64,000 nt of DNA from Actinomycetota bacterium (GCA_023379935.1 JAMCPD010000020.1:3382-67381); one strand, 5' to 3'. Counted from the first letter of the stretch, positions 35,417-41,390 are shown. Program-made: numbers and translations. Notes: generated by a model from the sequence alone, not told the origin.

Positions 35417-36976
35417 CTAGCCATTGGATCTCACTGCCGCACCAACCATTTTCACCACCGACCAAGTTCCCGGTATCCGTTGTTCATTTTCTGCCAAAAC
35501 TCTGTACCAGAGTGATGTTGCGGGAGCGTTTCGATCTGTCCAAGGCGTACTGTCATCAGTGGCGCAACGGTTGCACACTGTAGACCAGGGGCCGCTTGGT
35601 CCCGCAGTTGAACGTTCAATGCTATATGTAGCTGCATCCGTTGTTCCGCGCCAAGCGATCTCTACAGAAGAACTACGGTGTTTGTCTGTTTTGGCTATCC
35701 GCCGGGCAAGTGTTATGAGCGGCTCGCCCGGAGGAGGCTCAAGCGGTTCATAACCACCCCCGATTCCTCGTGTTTTTTGAATAGCATAGTCGAATTTACG
35801 GATAAGGTGATCTCGCTTGCGCATTAGGGGGGATATACCCGGATAATGGAGTGTTTCTCCGTCGTTATGCTGTTCGTAGCCGTAAGTGTCAAGGTGGGCA
35901 AATAAGGACCAAAATGCCCAACCCGCAATCTTATGATCTTTTTCTATCGTTCTGAACAGTTGCGCATTAGCGAATATTGATCCGTACTCTCCGGCAATGA
36001 AAACCTTGCCTGCGTTCGTTACTTGGTTGGCATCCGCTATTACGTTTGGGATAATTGGTGGGTAAAAGTGTGCGTCAACGATATCGATAAGAGGAGCGGT
36101 TAGCGTTGCAGGATTAATGCCGAACTGTTCTCCGGCAGCTATCAGTTGATCTGGTGCCAGGTGGTGTATGAATGCAGCGATTGTGTCAATCCATGATGGA
36201 GTCATACCGTTCAGCTCATTGCCAAGTTCCCACGCCATGATTGTCGGATCGTTTCGGAGCTCAAGTCCGGTATAAGGGTTTTTATGATCAAGTAATACGG
36301 TTATATACTGTTCAAAGGCCGAGATTGCCTGTTGATCGGTGTAAAAGGCTTGAGAGGGAATCTTGAGCCAGTGTGTGAAGTCATGATAACTCCCTTCGTA
36401 ATAATGCCAGTTGTCTGTCAGTGGAATTATCAATCGAATTCCAAGATGACAGGCTTGGTCAACAGCGTAGTCAACTGTTCGAAATGCTTGGCTGTTGAAG
36501 TGTCCGAGAGATGGTTCAAGGCTGTCCGGATTGCCGGTAGAAATACCCAAGGTATGCGATCTAACTACGGTTACACCCATGTCCAAAGCGGTTTTTAAAG
36601 CATCGCGAATTCTAAAATCTGTAGGATATGCTATTCCCCCTACATTTTCATCCAGCCCAAGCCAGTAGATGTTAGCTCCCCCGAAACGAAATGGATGGTC
36701 ATTGAGCACCAATGTCGAACCTTTGCGTGTTATGTAAGCATTTGTTGGCGGTATCTGGCCGGTGGATGGCGTTGGAGAGCAATCAATAGGAGGGTTTGGT
36801 GCGGGGAAATGTCTTGGCACCAGAGCCATGTTGGAGTGTGGTGCACAGCTTGTGCTAAGAAGTATAATGGCAAACAGTACACACCACAGTAGAAGTCTTA
36901 GATGTCTTGGGCGCATAGATGTAAAATGTTCACAGTCAGCCTTAGCATGATTGGCGCTACAGGCATATGTCTTCAT
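35417..36976 (-). CDS. Secreted/lipoprotein GH5 glycoside hydrolase (beta-mannanase-like) with an FN3-like C-terminal domain
   Basis: F.GAN.YWLG, acid/base AWELGNE, H.Y, nucleophile AGEYG, FWSL; possible lipobox LSTSC; C-terminal WRG...Y.IERS...YRV.A.N. Confidence 0.8.
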   Translation of the reverse strand: MKTYACSANHAKADCEHFTSMRPRHLRLLLWCVLFAIILLSTSCAPHSNMALVPRHFPAPNPPIDCSPTPSTGQIPPTNAYITRKGSTLVLNDHPFRFGGANIYWLGLDENVGGIAYPTDFRIRDALKTALDMGVTVVRSHTLGISTGNPDSLEPSLGHFNSQAFRTVDYAVDQACHLGIRLIIPLTDNWHYYEGSYHDFTHWLKIPSQAFYTDQQAISAFEQYITVLLDHKNPYTGLELRNDPTIMAWELGNELNGMTPSWIDTIAAFIHHLAPDQLIAAGEQFGINPATLTAPLIDIVDAHFYPPIIPNVIADANQVTNAGKVFIAGEYGSIFANAQLFRTIEKDHKIAGWAFWSLFAHLDTYGYEQHNDGETLHYPGISPLMRKRDHLIRKFDYAIQKTRGIGGGYEPLEPPPGEPLITLARRIAKTDKHRSSSVEIAWRGTTDAATYSIERSTAGPSGPWSTVCNRCATDDSTPWTDRNAPATSLWYRVLAENEQRIPGTWSVVKMVGAAVRSNG

Positions 36977-37110
36977 AGGCAGCTATTATAGCCGTCTTGG
37001 GAGTGGTTGGGTTGACCAAGGCGGGAAGGCAAGGGAAAAACCTGTTTTTGTGAGTTATTGATAAAATTTTAAAAGGATATCCACCGGTTAATTGATTTAA
37101 TGCACTAAAC

Positions 37111-37126
37111 TCAAACATATGTTTGT
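37111..37126. promoter_or_regulatory. LexA/SOS-box-like palindrome overlapping the ruvC start codon
   Basis: TCAAAC-ATAT-GTTTGT, with a perfect 14-bp palindrome CAAACATATGTTTG. Resembles the actinobacterial TCGAAC-N4-GTTCGA. A -10 TAAACT lies immediately upstream. Confidence 0.5.
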
Positions 37127-37655
37127 ATTAGGTATAGACCCCGGACTATCACGATGTGGTTATGGGTGTGTTGATGACGGTTGGGTGTTGGCGGATGCAG
37201 GCGTAATCTCTACCCACCACAGGTTAGAGTTGCCAAAGCGACTTGAATACTTATTTGAGGAGTTGAAACGGCTTATGTTACGGTTGCAACCGCAAGTCGT
37301 GGCAGTGGAAAGAGTGTTTTTTCAAGTAAATGCCCGCACCGCCATGCCAACAGCCCAAGCAGGAGGGTTGGCTTTGTTGGCCGCTCAACAGGCAGGCTGT
37401 AAAGTAGTTCAATATACCTCCAATGAAGTGAAAATGGCTGTTGTAGGTTATGGTGGTGCCACCAAGGCTCAAGTTCAGAATATGGTAATGATGTTGTTGA
37501 GTTTGGATGAGATACCACAACCGGCTGATGTTGCGGATGCTCTTGGTTTGGCAATCTGCCACTTAAGTTCGCTACCGCTGCAAAGGGCGTTGTCGAAGTC
37601 AACTACCCCGCCCTCACGGACGGGGCTTGCGGAAGGTTCCGGAAGCCCAGGTTGA
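37119..37655 (+). CDS. ruvC: Holliday junction resolvase RuvC (last 18 aa encoded by the inserted element)
   Basis: GIDPG, VERVFF, Y...VK.AV.GYG.A.K.QV, D.ADA..AICH. Confidence 0.96.
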   Translation: MFVLGIDPGLSRCGYGCVDDGWVLADAGVISTHHRLELPKRLEYLFEELKRLMLRLQPQVVAVERVFFQVNARTAMPTAQAGGLALLAAQQAGCKVVQYTSNEVKMAVVGYGGATKAQVQNMVMMLLSLDEIPQPADVADALGLAICHLSSLPLQRALSKSTTPPSRTGLAEGSGSPG

Positions 37656-37940
37656 CCAGACCGAGATATTAAAGAAAGAAGGTGAGACAGATATCTACGT
37701 TACATGCAAGTAAGAAGACCTATCCTGGGATGCTTCCTCAGTCCCAGGCTCTAGAATCCGCGTCAGTAGACAACCGTAAGGGCAAGGACGAAACGGGGCG
37801 TGGAGGTTGTGGATACACAACAACTGGCATGCAACATGGTCGAGGGGATCGTTCTTTGGAGTTCACCTCTCTAAAGAACAGTCACCCCGTGACTTCGGAG
37901 AAATCCGGGGGAGCAGGAGCAAGGAGCGTTGTTGCTCCAT
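37578..37940 (+). ncRNA. omega-RNA (HEARO-like scaffold) with a 5' guide taken from the flanking ruvC sequence
   Basis: GTCAAC...GTTGACCAG stem, CTACGTT, CCTGGGATGCTTCCTCAGTCCCAGGCTCT hairpin, CAACATGGTCGAGGGGA, terminal hairpin 37916-37938; directly upstream of the PLMP-like domain. Boundaries approximate. Confidence 0.8.
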
Positions 37941-39397
37941 TTAGTACCCAATCACGGGTGTTTGTGGTTGACAGCCACGGCAACCCTCTCGTTCCCTGTC
38001 ATCCAGCCAGGGCACGGAAATTGCTAAAGTCCAGGCGAGCCAGAGTCCACCATTTGGCTCCGTTTGTCATTAAATTGGTGGATAGGGAAGTAGAGCAGTG
38101 TGAGGTTCCGGGAGTTGTCGTGAAGATTGACCCTGGCTCCAAATACACCGGTATTGTTTGCGCTCGCGTGGATGAGGCCGGTATAACTCATGGGCTGGTG
38201 TCGATCCAGCTTGATCATCGCGGGCAGTTGATTCACAAAAAGATGGGACAGCGGTCCAGCTATCGCCGACGCAGACGGTCAACCAATTTACGTTATCGTG
38301 CACCACGATGGAGAAATCGCCACCCACAGGCTTGTCGGACATGTGGAAAAAATGCAAAACATGGAAGTCGATATTGTGGAACGTGTCTTGAGAGTCGTAA
38401 TTTCATAGATAATGGATATCGCCAATACCGACTTCCACCAAGCCTTTTCCATCGAGTTGCGACCTCCATATCATGGATAAATCGTTTGTCCAGGTGGGCT
38501 CCGGTTACAAGATTGGCGATGGAGCTGGTGAGCTTTGATACCCAGGTGATGCAGAACCCTGAGATATCCGGTGTTCAGTATCAACAAGGTACCCTGGCGG
38601 GCTACGAGGTACGGGAGTATCTTCTTTGTAAGTGGGGGAGGAGGTGTGCATACTGTGGAGATGCCAACACACCTCTACAAATTGAGCACATTCTGGCTCG
38701 CTCCAAAGGTGGAACGAATCGAATCTCAAATCTTACCCTTGCCTGTAGGAAATGTAACGAATCCAAAGGCTCTCTAGCTGTAGATGCTTGGTGCAAGCGA
38801 TATTTCGGAGAACAAAAGGGAAGGAAAATTGTTGCCAGAGTCACCGGCCAGGCCAAAGCTCCCTTGACGGATGCAGCGGCGGTCAATTCCACCCGTTGGG
38901 CATTGTGGCGGGAGCTTGTTAAGACAGGGCTACCAGTTGAGACCGGTACGGGTGGGCGAACTAAATGGAATCGTAGTCGGCAGAACATCCCTAAGTCTCA
39001 TACATTGGATGCTCTGTGTGTAGGTGTGACCGATATCGTCGGTGCAGTGCCAAGCAGTGCACTAACTGTCACCTGCACAGGACGAGGCCAACACCAGAGG
39101 ACAAGACCCAATAGATATGGTTTTGTCCGTCTAAGACTACCTCGACAAAAGACCCATCACGGCTTACGTACAGGTGATTATGTGCGGGCAGTGATGCCAA
39201 AAGGCAAATACAAAGGAGTTCATGTTGGACGTATAAGTGTGCGATCATCTGGAAGCGTTCGAGTAGGAAAGACAGACGGCATTTCTGCGAAGAATTGCAC
39301 GGTTTTGCAACGAGCAGATGGTTATGGATATGAGAGAAAGGAGGAAACGCCTCTCCTCCCCGCCCTTACGGACGAGGTATCCGAGGCGTGAAAATTG
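37598..39397 (+). mobile_element. Non-autonomous IS200/IS605-family OMEGA element (omega-RNA + iscB, no tnpA)
   Basis: Begins GTCAACTACCCCGCCC. Matching subterminal hairpins CCCCGCCCTCACGGACGGGG (37606-37625) and CCCCGCCCTTACGGACGAGG (39358-39377). No target-site duplication. Excision restores the ruvC stop/ruvA start. Confidence 0.92.
37682..39391 (+). CDS. iscB: RNA-guided endonuclease IscB
   Basis: PLMP-like VFVVD..GNPLVPCHPARAR.LL, RuvC-I IDPGSK, Arg-rich bridge helix, RuvC-II ELVSFD, HNH CAYC..IEHI..RSKGG.N..SNL.LAC..CN..K, RuvC-III SH.LDA, C-terminal LQRADGY.Y. The true start may be GTG 37958. Confidence 0.95.
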   Translation: MRQISTLHASKKTYPGMLPQSQALESASVDNRKGKDETGRGGCGYTTTGMQHGRGDRSLEFTSLKNSHPVTSEKSGGAGARSVVAPFSTQSRVFVVDSHGNPLVPCHPARARKLLKSRRARVHHLAPFVIKLVDREVEQCEVPGVVVKIDPGSKYTGIVCARVDEAGITHGLVSIQLDHRGQLIHKKMGQRSSYRRRRRSTNLRYRAPRWRNRHPQACRTCGKNAKHGSRYCGTCLESRNFIDNGYRQYRLPPSLFHRVATSISWINRLSRWAPVTRLAMELVSFDTQVMQNPEISGVQYQQGTLAGYEVREYLLCKWGRRCAYCGDANTPLQIEHILARSKGGTNRISNLTLACRKCNESKGSLAVDAWCKRYFGEQKGRKIVARVTGQAKAPLTDAAAVNSTRWALWRELVKTGLPVETGTGGRTKWNRSRQNIPKSHTLDALCVGVTDIVGAVPSSALTVTCTGRGQHQRTRPNRYGFVRLRLPRQKTHHGLRTGDYVRAVMPKGKYKGVHVGRISVRSSGSVRVGKTDGISAKNCTVLQRADGYGYERKEETPLLPALTDEVSEA

Positions 39398-40252
39398 ATG
39401 ATAGCATTCCTTGACGGTAGATTGATCTCCAAGTTAACACTTGCCGATAATGTCTCCGAAGTTGTAGTCGATGTCGGTGGAATAGGTTATCAAGTATTTG
39501 TCGCTGATCAGACCTTTGCCAAATTACCGGCTTCAACGGACAGAGTGCAGTTATGGATACATACCTATGTCAGAGAAGAAACCTTTGCGCTTTATGGATT
39601 TCTTGATCCAATAGAGAGAAAGTTTTTCCAAATTTTATTGACGGCCCGCGGTGTCGGTCCTTCGCTTGGGCTTTCATTGTTGTCGCTGCATTCGCCACTT
39701 ACGATATGGGAGGCGGTAACGGTAGAAGATGTGGATTTGTTGTCCTTGGTGCCAGGCATTGGACCTAAGACTGCCGCCCGGTTGTGCTTGGAGTTGAAGA
39801 ATCGTTTGCCGGATCGCCATGTGTTGGAGAGTTGGTCGGTAGGTTTATCGGCTTTGGGCTATGAAGCAGATGAGGGGAAAACGAATAAGGACGCAACAGA
39901 CGAAGGTGCGCCAAGCACGGACAAGGCGGTTCTTGTTCCGAAGCCAGCCGGGGACAAGAATGAAAAGAGCGGATCAGTGATTCTTGGGGTGGACGGGCCG
40001 GGGAATGGTTCTGCACTGGTAGATCTAAAGGGCGCCTTAGAGGAGTTGGGATATACACCAAAGGAGATTCGGTTTGCACTCTCGGCTATTTATTCATCAC
40101 AACTGAATGCAAGTATGCTAAATGGTGGAAAACAAGGCAGTGATTCTATGGATAGCCGCCAAAGCAAAGCAAGCCTGCAAGAGTTGTTGCGTTTTGCACT
40201 AAGTGAATTGAGACAGAAAAACGGAAATATAGAAAGGAACAGATCATGGTGA
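39398..40252 (+). CDS. ruvA: Holliday junction branch migration protein RuvA
   Basis: MIAFLDG, DVGGIGY, VRE...LYGF, GVGP, VPGIGPKTA.R..LELK, AL..LGY; long inserted linker. Confidence 0.93.
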   Translation: MIAFLDGRLISKLTLADNVSEVVVDVGGIGYQVFVADQTFAKLPASTDRVQLWIHTYVREETFALYGFLDPIERKFFQILLTARGVGPSLGLSLLSLHSPLTIWEAVTVEDVDLLSLVPGIGPKTAARLCLELKNRLPDRHVLESWSVGLSALGYEADEGKTNKDATDEGAPSTDKAVLVPKPAGDKNEKSGSVILGVDGPGNGSALVDLKGALEELGYTPKEIRFALSAIYSSQLNASMLNGGKQGSDSMDSRQSKASLQELLRFALSELRQKNGNIERNRSW

Positions 40253-41280
40253 GCGAGTTCAATGACAGTGAGGTTTCGTTAGTACGTACTTTGGATCCCC
40301 ACTCCGACCTTGAAGAGTCTTATCAAGAAATAGCTTTAAGACCCAAATATCTGAGAGATTTTGTGGGACAAACTTCGCTAAAAGATCATCTTGATATCAT
40401 GTTAACGGCAGCCAAGCAGCGTGAGTTATCCCTTGACCACCTTTTGTTTGTCGGCCCTCCCGGTCTTGGTAAGACCTCCTTGGCTCACATCGTTGCCACT
40501 GAACTTGGCGTGGGGTTTCATGTTACTTCAGGCCCTGTTCTGGTGCGAGGTGGGGATTTGGTGTCCATACTTACCGGGCTACAACCAGGCGATGTCCTGT
40601 TTATAGATGAACTGCATCGTCTCAGTAGAGCAGTAGAGGAGATTTTATATCCTGCCATGGAGGACTTTCAAGTTGACCTTCTTATAGGCAAAGGCCCGAC
40701 AGCTCGCTCTATACGCTTGGATGTGCCTCCGTTCACTTTGATCGGCGCTACTACCCGTACGGGGCTTATAACGGGTCCTTTGAGAGATCGTTTCGGTTTC
40801 GTGTCCCGCCTTGATTATTACAGTATTGGCGAGTTAAAAGATATCATACTGCGCTCTGCGCAGATATTGAAGGTGTCCATTAAACCTGAAGCGGCCCTGG
40901 AAATTGCTACACGAAGTCGGGGAACTCCTAGGATAGCAAACCGGCTTCTTAGGAGGATAAGAGATTTTGCTGAAGTACGCGCTAACGGTTGCATAACCAC
41001 TCAAGTGGCCGAAACGGGGTTGGATCTTTTTGAAGTAGACAAACTTGGACTTGACAAGTTGGATCGTGCTATACTTGAAACTCTTATCCTGCGTTTTGAA
41101 GGACGTCCGGTAGGACTGACTACTTTGGCGCAGTCTGTAGGAGAAGAGATGGATACTCTTCAGTATGTTTATGAACCTTTTCTACTCCAACAAGGGCTGT
41201 TGATAAGAACTGGAAAGGGAAGAGTTGCTACCTCGGCTGCTTTTAGGCACTTGGGCGTAGACTATGATCTTGATAAGTAG
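40246..41280 (+). CDS. ruvB: Holliday junction branch migration helicase RuvB
   Basis: LRP....FVGQ, GPPGLGKT, FIDE.HRL, GATTR.G, RGTPRIANRLLRR. Confidence 0.98.
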   Translation: MVSEFNDSEVSLVRTLDPHSDLEESYQEIALRPKYLRDFVGQTSLKDHLDIMLTAAKQRELSLDHLLFVGPPGLGKTSLAHIVATELGVGFHVTSGPVLVRGGDLVSILTGLQPGDVLFIDELHRLSRAVEEILYPAMEDFQVDLLIGKGPTARSIRLDVPPFTLIGATTRTGLITGPLRDRFGFVSRLDYYSIGELKDIILRSAQILKVSIKPEAALEIATRSRGTPRIANRLLRRIRDFAEVRANGCITTQVAETGLDLFEVDKLGLDKLDRAILETLILRFEGRPVGLTTLAQSVGEEMDTLQYVYEPFLLQQGLLIRTGKGRVATSAAFRHLGVDYDLDK

Positions 41281-41390
41281 TTAAATAAATAGTTAAACGG
41301 TGACAGTTAGTTAATGGTGAGTTAATCGAATGATTAGTCAGATGATGAAAAATTTTTCAAAATATCTGGTAGTCTTCATTGAGGTGATTT

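Follow-up and report, generated by a model that had tools for sequence, protein, structure and literature searches.

An IscB element at the ruvC-ruvA junction of an Actinomycetota genome and its predicted placement under a LexA operator

An IscB element between ruvC and ruvA

The window analyzed here is a stretch of 64,000 nucleotides (nt) from an Actinomycetota bacterium (GCA_023379935.1 JAMCPD010000020.1:3382-67381) with a genome of 1.9 Mb and an assembly that is 90.8% complete. All coordinates are counted over this whole stretch, and features lie on the + strand unless stated otherwise. The window contains a ruvCAB operon that carries an IscB element, with an omega-RNA and a nuclease gene, between ruvC and ruvA. 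As an earlier note made from the sequence alone had proposed, and as Pfam and Rfam place them, ruvC, a HEARO-type omega-RNA, iscB, ruvA and ruvB follow one another in this order on one strand. ruvC (37119..37655) is an open reading frame (ORF) of 178 codons with a Pfam RuvC domain at residues 3-148 (7e-46). The omega-RNA scaffold (Rfam HEARO, RF02033; 37598..37855) matches positions 1-211 of the 211-position model with 102.9 bits against a gathering score of 83 (E = 3.6e-21). iscB (37958..39391) encodes 477 amino acids from a GTG at 37958 and contains RRXRR (4e-56) and HNH domains in Pfam. ruvA (39398..40252; Pfam RuvA) starts 6 nt past the iscB stop, and ruvB (40246..41280; Pfam RuvB) overlaps the end of ruvA. 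The explanation that we favor for the locus as a whole, with moderate confidence, is that the element occupies the ruvC/ruvA junction under a borrowed LexA promoter and that residence at such a place is favored.

The ends of the element can be read from a second copy in the same genome. The block of 1805 base pairs (bp) at 37597-39401 is 100% identical to C22:20316-22120, giving two copies whose 5' flanks differ and which both have A before and TTGATGA after them (n = 2 only). Identical ends at different sites, a common target motif and differing guides (n = 2) mark a mobile unit, namely a non-autonomous IscB element of the IS200/IS605 type with a length of ~1797 bp (37598..39394). TTGATGA (39395..39401), which resembles a target motif or target-adjacent motif (TAM), is identical at both copies and contains the original ruvC stop TGA and the ruvA ATG, the latter being preserved despite the insertion. 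Its GATGA core was also found 3' of related elements in other records. Removal of 37598-39394 or its equivalent in silico restores an in-frame TGA for the upstream host gene at both sites, ruvC here and a gene for an FGGY sugar kinase at the C22 copy, and at the ruv locus it also restores a TGATG stop/start overlap with ruvA. With the element in place, the last 58 nt of ruvC come from the element and its omega-RNA and encode a foreign tail of ~19 residues (…STTPPSRTGLAEGSGSPG), and the kinase gene is fused to the identical tail …STTPPSRTGLAEGSGSPG. Judged from these comparisons, the element is inserted precisely at the ruvC-stop/ruvA-start junction, adjoining TTGATGA, and has been recently mobile; the exact insertion point is explained by the coincidence of the TTGATGA target motif with the stop/start overlap. 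In 29 relatives, the gap between ruvC and ruvA ranges from -20 to +88 nt, mostly as ATGA, GTGA or TGATG overlaps, and none of the 29 has an insertion between the two genes.

Near its left end the element has a subterminal hairpin-forming repeat, CCCCGCCCTCACGGACGGGG (37606..37625), read from the sequence, and a second copy near the other end (39358..39377) is identical to it at 18 of 20 positions. Although iscB has an in-frame ATG upstream at 37829, within the omega-RNA, the protein counted from the GTG aligns at residue 1 with solved IscBs (TbaIscB 9k30, 2e-53; OgeuIscB 7utn/7xht, 2e-19). Both nuclease domains are recognized (PF14239, 4e-56; PF01844/PF14279, ~1e-11), the translation contains catalytic-looking motifs, and iscB is apparently intact. 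A Y1 (HUH) TnpA was not found, PF01797 giving 0 matches in the 90.8%-complete genome. The element is therefore classed as non-autonomous, like the majority of iscB elements, which leaves its membership in the IscB kind unaffected. A scan of genome contigs for the IscB gave two distant relatives only.

The predicted guide of the omega-RNA lies directly outside the element. Identity between the two copies begins at 37597/37598, and the 16 nt before it (37582..37597), an assumed guide length that follows known IscBs, are host sequence from the 3' end of ruvC. The guide thus lies inside the ruvC ORF and, as the earlier note had it, within ruvC mRNA. The guides of the two copies are each unique in the genome.

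Contigs from four DNA runs (X3, X9, X10 and X11, from two studies, neither of them the likely source study) show no joint across the element that would represent an empty-site allele; because contigs drop rare variants, this negative establishes no more than the presence of the insertion in those samples. At the left junction, contigs extend just 29-30 letters into the element, short of the 31 letters required, and one contig (X10, record 6) spans the right junction. In three of the four metagenome runs the summed depth at the two ends of the element (37488-37634 and 39252-39398) exceeds the depth of its interior 5- to 20-fold (at the left end only in X9), many distinct loose contig ends begin at 37597/37598 and 39401, and some contigs have GTCAACTA joined straight to the hairpin at 39358. 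These patterns point to communities in which the element has many more insertion sites or exists as short derivatives made up of the ends only. A domesticated IscB working together with RuvABC was also considered and rejected, given the identical second copy at an unrelated gene, the typical transposon ends and nothing else in its support.

A predicted LexA operator at the ruvC start codon

The palindrome that had been noticed over the ruvC start is present as CAAACATATGTTTG at 37112..37125. It is a perfect 14-nt palindrome, assigned to neither strand, that covers the predicted +1 and the ATG of ruvC, with the ATG (37119-37121) at its center, and we predict it to be a LexA operator of the Cheo type. 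The -10-like hexamer TAAACT (TAnnnT; 37106..37111), a putative element of the ruvC promoter, ends 7 nt before the ATG, a spacing that fits a leaderless start. The palindrome differs from GAAC-N4-GTTC at two symmetric positions, as already remarked in the earlier note, with A for G in each half (CAAAC-ATAT-GTTTG). Single A-variant halves are frequent in the lexA promoters of relatives, and CAAAC-N4-GTTTG occurs at 8 sites in the 1.9-Mb genome, another of them lying ~48 nt upstream of lexA.

The position of the palindrome is conserved. A search for ruvC in 40 order-level relatives returned loci for 29, of which 20 have RAAC-N4-GTTY at the same -7 position with ATG or GTG in the center and six have CGTAC-N4-GTTCG at -7, so that 26 of the 29 have a box there; in two of the remaining relatives the box is 46-55 nt upstream, and the last has no box. 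In the first 20, the non-coding upstream half CGAAC is conserved as well as the coding half. TAnnnT is found at -13..-8 in 17 of the 29 relatives as well as in the window, which fits leaderless mRNAs.

The same motif was recovered from the genome's own SOS genes, a check that had been suggested along with the original observation. The genome encodes lexA (215 bits, above the cut-off) and recA (556 bits); the lexA promoter contains CAAACTAATGTTTG ~48 nt before the ATG, which is the A-variant, and CAAACATATGTTCG farther upstream, and the recA promoter contains AGAACATTTGTTTG. The lexA promoters of the 29 relatives hold 96 boxes, with 2-5 per promoter and the gene-proximal one often TCGAAC-N4-GTTTG. 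We trained a LexA matrix on these boxes, which were chosen by a pattern that fixes the core, and excluded ruvC and this genome from the training. Genome-wide, the matrix ranks lexA first, ruvC second (16.8 bits), a site upstream of dnaB third and recA fifth (14.1 bits), the lexA sites scoring 18.9, 12.7 and 12.2 bits; the four best intergenic matches are those at lexA, ruvC, dnaB and recA. The identical 14-mer CAAACATATGTTTG also occurs in other genomes of the phylum with low guanine-plus-cytosine (GC) content. The positional orthology, the presence of the variant at the genome's own lexA and the second rank in the matrix search make it very probable that the palindrome is a LexA operator, and what had been a tentative SOS box is thereby strengthened.

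Several further features were observed in connection with the operator and the ruvC promoter. Outside the window, strong LexA-type boxes immediately precede a gene for a replicative DnaB-like helicase (15.0 bits; G000:C19:57375) and an ArdC-like/metalloprotease gene (12.8 bits; G000:C18:69521), both annotated by eye from their translations, and these two genes are candidate members of a small SOS regulon. The predicted recognition helix of the genome's own LexA (L001, G000:C10) reads STVQSHL as opposed to STVH.HL in 26 of the 29 relatives, with L064 sharing the Q, and this change might accompany the A-for-G variant of the operator. A conserved TCCACC motif (37080..37085) is located 39 nt upstream of the ruvC start; it stands at exactly -39 in 7 of the 29 relatives, with near-variants in many others, and may constitute a second conserved element of the ruvC promoter or operator in the phylum. 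For Streptomyces venezuelae, the published study gives TCCACCCCGAGAAC as the validated 'SOS box' of ruvC (PMC9380542). The ruvC promoter sits in a 142-nt gap between ruvC and a divergent gene of the GH5 cellulase family on the - strand (35417-36976; 519 amino acids). At the other end of the operon, yajC and secD come after ruvB.

Transcription of the guide and the nuclease

How an IscB guide is supplied has been described by the preprint of Meers et al. 2023 (10.1101/2023.03.14.532601): the omega-RNA scaffold comes from the transposon end and the guide from outside the element, so that transcription of the guide must begin outside as well. According to the same preprint, genes upstream of iscB are preferentially co-oriented with it, and tnpA is found near just ~1.5% of iscB genes. 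Since the guide in the window is likewise host sequence outside the element, it could be made only from a transcript that starts outside. A simple scan of 36980-37960 found no sigma-70-like promoter on either strand, and terminator-like sites in this interval amount to two weak ones, with 1.3 expected by chance. An internal constitutive promoter, which the earlier note had named among the findings that would speak against its proposal, did not turn up in this consensus-promoter scan. The only upstream start in sight is the ruvC start covered by the LexA box, 479 nt before the omega-RNA scaffold.

These features suggest the following mechanism. The transcript that supplies the guide would be the leaderless ruvC mRNA, starting at the center of the LexA operator. 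In undamaged cells, LexA would keep ruvC, the omega-RNA, iscB and ruvAB at a low level. Upon DNA damage, RecA-stimulated cleavage of LexA would lead to their joint derepression, after which processing would have to release the omega-RNA from the 5' portion of the mRNA. Its scaffold being 479 nt past the predicted transcription start, such a 5' processing step would be needed. LexA binding, co-transcription, processing and nuclease activity are all inferred from sequence here; we expect ruvC, the omega-RNA, iscB and ruvAB to form one LexA-repressed transcript, and we consider SOS-dependent co-induction of the locus somewhat more probable than its absence. A search for RNA runs covering 36900-41300 found none. 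The RecA-independent promoter motif had no match in the window or in L164, a related IscB locus described below, which is a weak negative.

IscB elements in LexA-box and repair operons

Given this arrangement, the neighborhoods of IscB elements elsewhere are of interest. IscB is rare in the window's phylum (5 of 401 genomes, including this one); the count is 6 of 401 genomes, again including this one, in the window's order and 7 of 87 in the class of G421, and no IscB was found in 400 further genomes from the phylum of G437. Our tally for the window's phylum comprises 22 independent loci, the window copy excluded.

Three of these loci have a strong box upstream. G421 and its congener G1251, counted as a single event, have an 18.4-bit box 55 nt upstream of the omega-RNA, within a promoter-like TTGACC-17-TAATAT from which transcription is predicted to start ~24 nt ahead of the scaffold. 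Downstream of iscB come dnaE2, which is intact in G1251 and reduced to a fragment in G421, and dinB; the box is the sole CRAAC-N4-GTTYG site in G421, and the IscB of G421 is 26% identical to that of the window. A dnaE2 interrupted by IscB occurs in both G1292 and G1293, with a box 60-80 nt upstream of the gene that scores 16.4 bits in the former and 19.3 bits in the latter. These are two species of one genus with different IscB elements (L144, C54 in G1292; L146, C78 in G1293), and the split points differ as well, at codons about 566-596 and 483-499 of an intact dnaE2 homologue, respectively. CRAAC-N4-GTTYG-type sites number 5 in G1292 and 4 in G1293. With 1-6 boxes per 1-2 Mb, and counting a box within 2.5 kb upstream, ~0.1 of the 22 phylum loci would be expected to have a box by chance, against the three strong ones observed.

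Other loci involve repair genes with a weaker box or none. A third IscB copy of G1293 splits a rarA-like gene behind a 14.5-bit box. In G1312 (L164, C59), a member of the window's order with an IscB 59% identical to the window's, the element is inserted at a GATGA overlap where an adnA-like gene meets an adnB-like one, and no box is present. One IscB copy of G246 has ssb as its first downstream ORF. Outside the phylum, one IscB that is 79% identical to the window's lies 19 nt before a recA, and another locus has recJ fused to the omega-RNA. By repair genes, the count is 8 of 53 loci outside the window. The category of repair genes was set after the first examples had appeared, so the gene-based count is a lead rather than a test, and the box-based count is the cleaner of the two.

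Because unrelated IscB elements lie behind LexA boxes or in repair operons more often than chance would give, residence in damage-inducible operons is probably favored, either at insertion or by retention, and, as other insertions behind LexA boxes have arisen independently in the phylum, SOS coupling is more than an isolated case. On the whole, the evidence leans toward a non-random association of IscB with LexA-box and repair operons. A more speculative proposal, which we regard as tentative and rather unlikely as it stands, is that IscBs of the phylum persist preferentially in LexA-repressed or damage-inducible repair operons (ruvCAB, dnaE2-dinB, adnAB, and near recA and recJ) as a damage-gated homing drive that is cheap under LexA. 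The guide and the nuclease would then appear only when damage yields the single-stranded DNA (ssDNA) that permits IS200/IS605 excision, and the recombination machinery for copying the element back would be induced at the same time.

Two other observations were made in this survey. IscB elements are found exactly between coupled partner genes, namely gatA/gatB (L145, G1252:C158), the adnA-like/adnB-like pair (L164) and parA/parB (L173, on a Deinococcus plasmid), which fits a target motif that resembles stop/start overlaps. In L039 (5211, 5683), a sigma-factor gene downstream of an IscB copy has the same …STTPP tail and is followed by two further omega-RNA-like starts; this 190-kb contig has at least 3 copies of an IscB with 79% identity to that of the window, along with additional omega-RNA starts.

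Competing explanations

A number of observations weigh against a functional link between the element and the SOS response. At the operator, A for G in both half-sites is likely to make the box weaker. Five first-order Markov genomes yielded 0, 2, 3, 1 and 7 sites scoring at least as high as that of ruvC; the score alone is thus not rare, and the case for an operator rests on position and orthology. For the transcript, the distance of 479 nt between the predicted start and the omega-RNA scaffold is unfavorable. In Mycobacterium tuberculosis, most of the damage induction of ruvC is RecA-independent despite an SOS box (PMC3381160). As to the element, the identical second copy at C22 stands behind the FGGY kinase gene, and the 6 kb upstream of it contain no LexA-matrix match above 7 bits. 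With no Y1 transposase found, the genome at present lacks the means of excising the element and thereby of generating a homing target. As to recurrence, the 7 other IscB loci of the window's order all lack an upstream box of at least 14 bits, a repair-gene neighbor was found at none of 8 plasmid IscB loci (picked one per genus from 62 matching records) and at 2 of 23 loci outside the phylum, and the repair-gene count suffers from its post-hoc category. The plasmid loci belong to operons for conjugation or partition, and each of the 8 has the orientation of the gene upstream of it. Of the damage-coupled homing circuit put forward in the earlier note, the components are supported, namely a very probable operator, the operon order and the guide within ruvC mRNA. 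That these form a selected circuit is rather unlikely, given the boxless second copy, a target motif that explains the site and the lack of any TnpA found.

The alternative that survives best, which we regard as unlikely though a serious contender, is an accident: the element landed where its target motif coincided with a stop/start overlap and is tolerated through read-through, SOS dependence being without consequence for it, and the excess of repair genes reflects tolerance in dispensable, mostly silent genes together with post-hoc counting. The copy at the kinase gene, which shares the motif and again provides an in-frame stop, is what such landing would give, as are the GATGA-type motifs 3' of related elements and the elements between gatA/gatB and parA/parB, which suggest that any coupled operon will serve. 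The missing TnpA and the zero counts for strong boxes at the seven same-order loci and for repair neighbors at the eight plasmid loci point the same way. What an accident does not account for is the three independent insertions, with IscBs 26-67% identical, in the LexA-controlled dnaE2 operon of genomes that have 1-5 boxes each, where ~0.1 box-linked locus was estimated among the 22 of the phylum. Tolerance alone also leaves unexplained why damage-inducible units were hit and not many other dispensable genes.

A constitutive promoter of its own, in the 3' part of ruvC or in the element, could instead drive the omega-RNA and iscB and make LexA irrelevant. The functional guide is expected to have its 5' end near 37582, far from the ruvC start, and promoters of the phylum often have no recognizable -35, so a simple scan can miss them and did miss the ruvC promoter. 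Against this, no sigma-70-like site was found at 36980-37960, the host DNA of the guide differs between the two copies, so that both host genes would need to have contained a promoter beforehand by chance, and the published analysis concludes that transcription comes from outside (10.1101/2023.03.14.532601). We consider such a promoter improbable.

That the palindrome is not a LexA site at all, and either just surrounds a leaderless start or binds a different regulator, is highly improbable. It does depart from GAAC-N4-GTTC in both halves, is partly constrained by Met-Phe-Val codons and is matched in score by 0-7 sites in random genomes. Against this, the non-coding CGAAC half shows the same degree of conservation as the coding half in 20 of the 29 relatives, every relative's lexA promoter holds the motif 2-5 times, the genome's own lexA has the A-variant, and further low-GC genomes in the phylum contain the identical 14-mer.

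The placement of the element under the LexA-operated ruvC promoter, which we prefer to these alternatives, has several implications. Cas9 descends from IscB, and very little has been published on how IscB is regulated in nature beyond the need for a host promoter; the window names a candidate host promoter and a candidate signal, LexA and the SOS response, for an IscB guide. If the recurrence in damage-inducible operons holds, it would link the timing of element excision, nuclease production and the availability of recombination, and it would explain how a nuclease-bearing element stays cheap for its host. The locus also indicates that 1.8 kb of mobile DNA can lie between the translationally coupled genes of a Holliday-junction operon and leave the operon in one piece.

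Comparison with known systems

A transcriptional SOS link for an IscB nuclease and its guide was not found in the literature searched, the coverage of which leaves out subscription journals. The element itself is an ordinary IscB element of the IS200/IS605 group (Altae-Tran 2021). Like the IscB/omega-RNA elements of Meers et al. (10.1101/2023.03.14.532601), it encodes an RRXRR/RuvC and HNH nuclease directly downstream of a HEARO omega-RNA, has its guide outside the element and no tnpA nearby, is co-oriented with the upstream host gene and would depend on host transcription. Unlike the published elements, it has a host promoter that can be named, the predicted LexA-operated leaderless promoter of ruvC, and it lies inside an operon for Holliday-junction resolution, with related as well as unrelated IscBs of the phylum recurring in LexA-box or repair operons.

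A ruvCAB operon with an SOS box is equally ordinary for the phylum. LexA chromatin immunoprecipitation peaks are reported at ruvC in M. tuberculosis (PMC3381160), and ruvC-ruvA belongs to the LexA regulon in S. venezuelae (PMC9380542). The window shares with these Actinomycetota operons the gene order ruvC-ruvA-ruvB and, by prediction, the SOS box in the ruvC promoter. It differs from them in that the box, as in the window's order generally, is centered on a leaderless start codon, that both half-sites have A for G and that a 1.8-kb mobile element stands between ruvC and ruvA.

DNA damage has been tied to the activity of an IS200/IS605 element before. Transposition of ISDra2 in Deinococcus radiodurans is triggered by irradiation, and its excision needs ssDNA from repair (Pasternak 2010, PMC2806898); according to that report, the trigger is the availability of substrate, with no damage-induced expression of the transposase. 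The link predicted for the window is instead transcriptional, through LexA, and concerns the guide RNA and the nuclease of an element for which no transposase was found.

The gating of a mobile element's enzyme to the SOS response by a LexA operator is likewise familiar. Integron integrases are LexA-repressed. So is the Tn5 transposase, as cited in PMC2806898. These systems have operators of their own, whereas the operator in the window belongs to the host operon and would be borrowed through the insertion site. What is new here is a nameable, very probably LexA-operated host promoter feeding an IscB guide, the position of the element between translationally coupled Holliday-junction genes, and the recurrence of unrelated IscBs in LexA-box operons.

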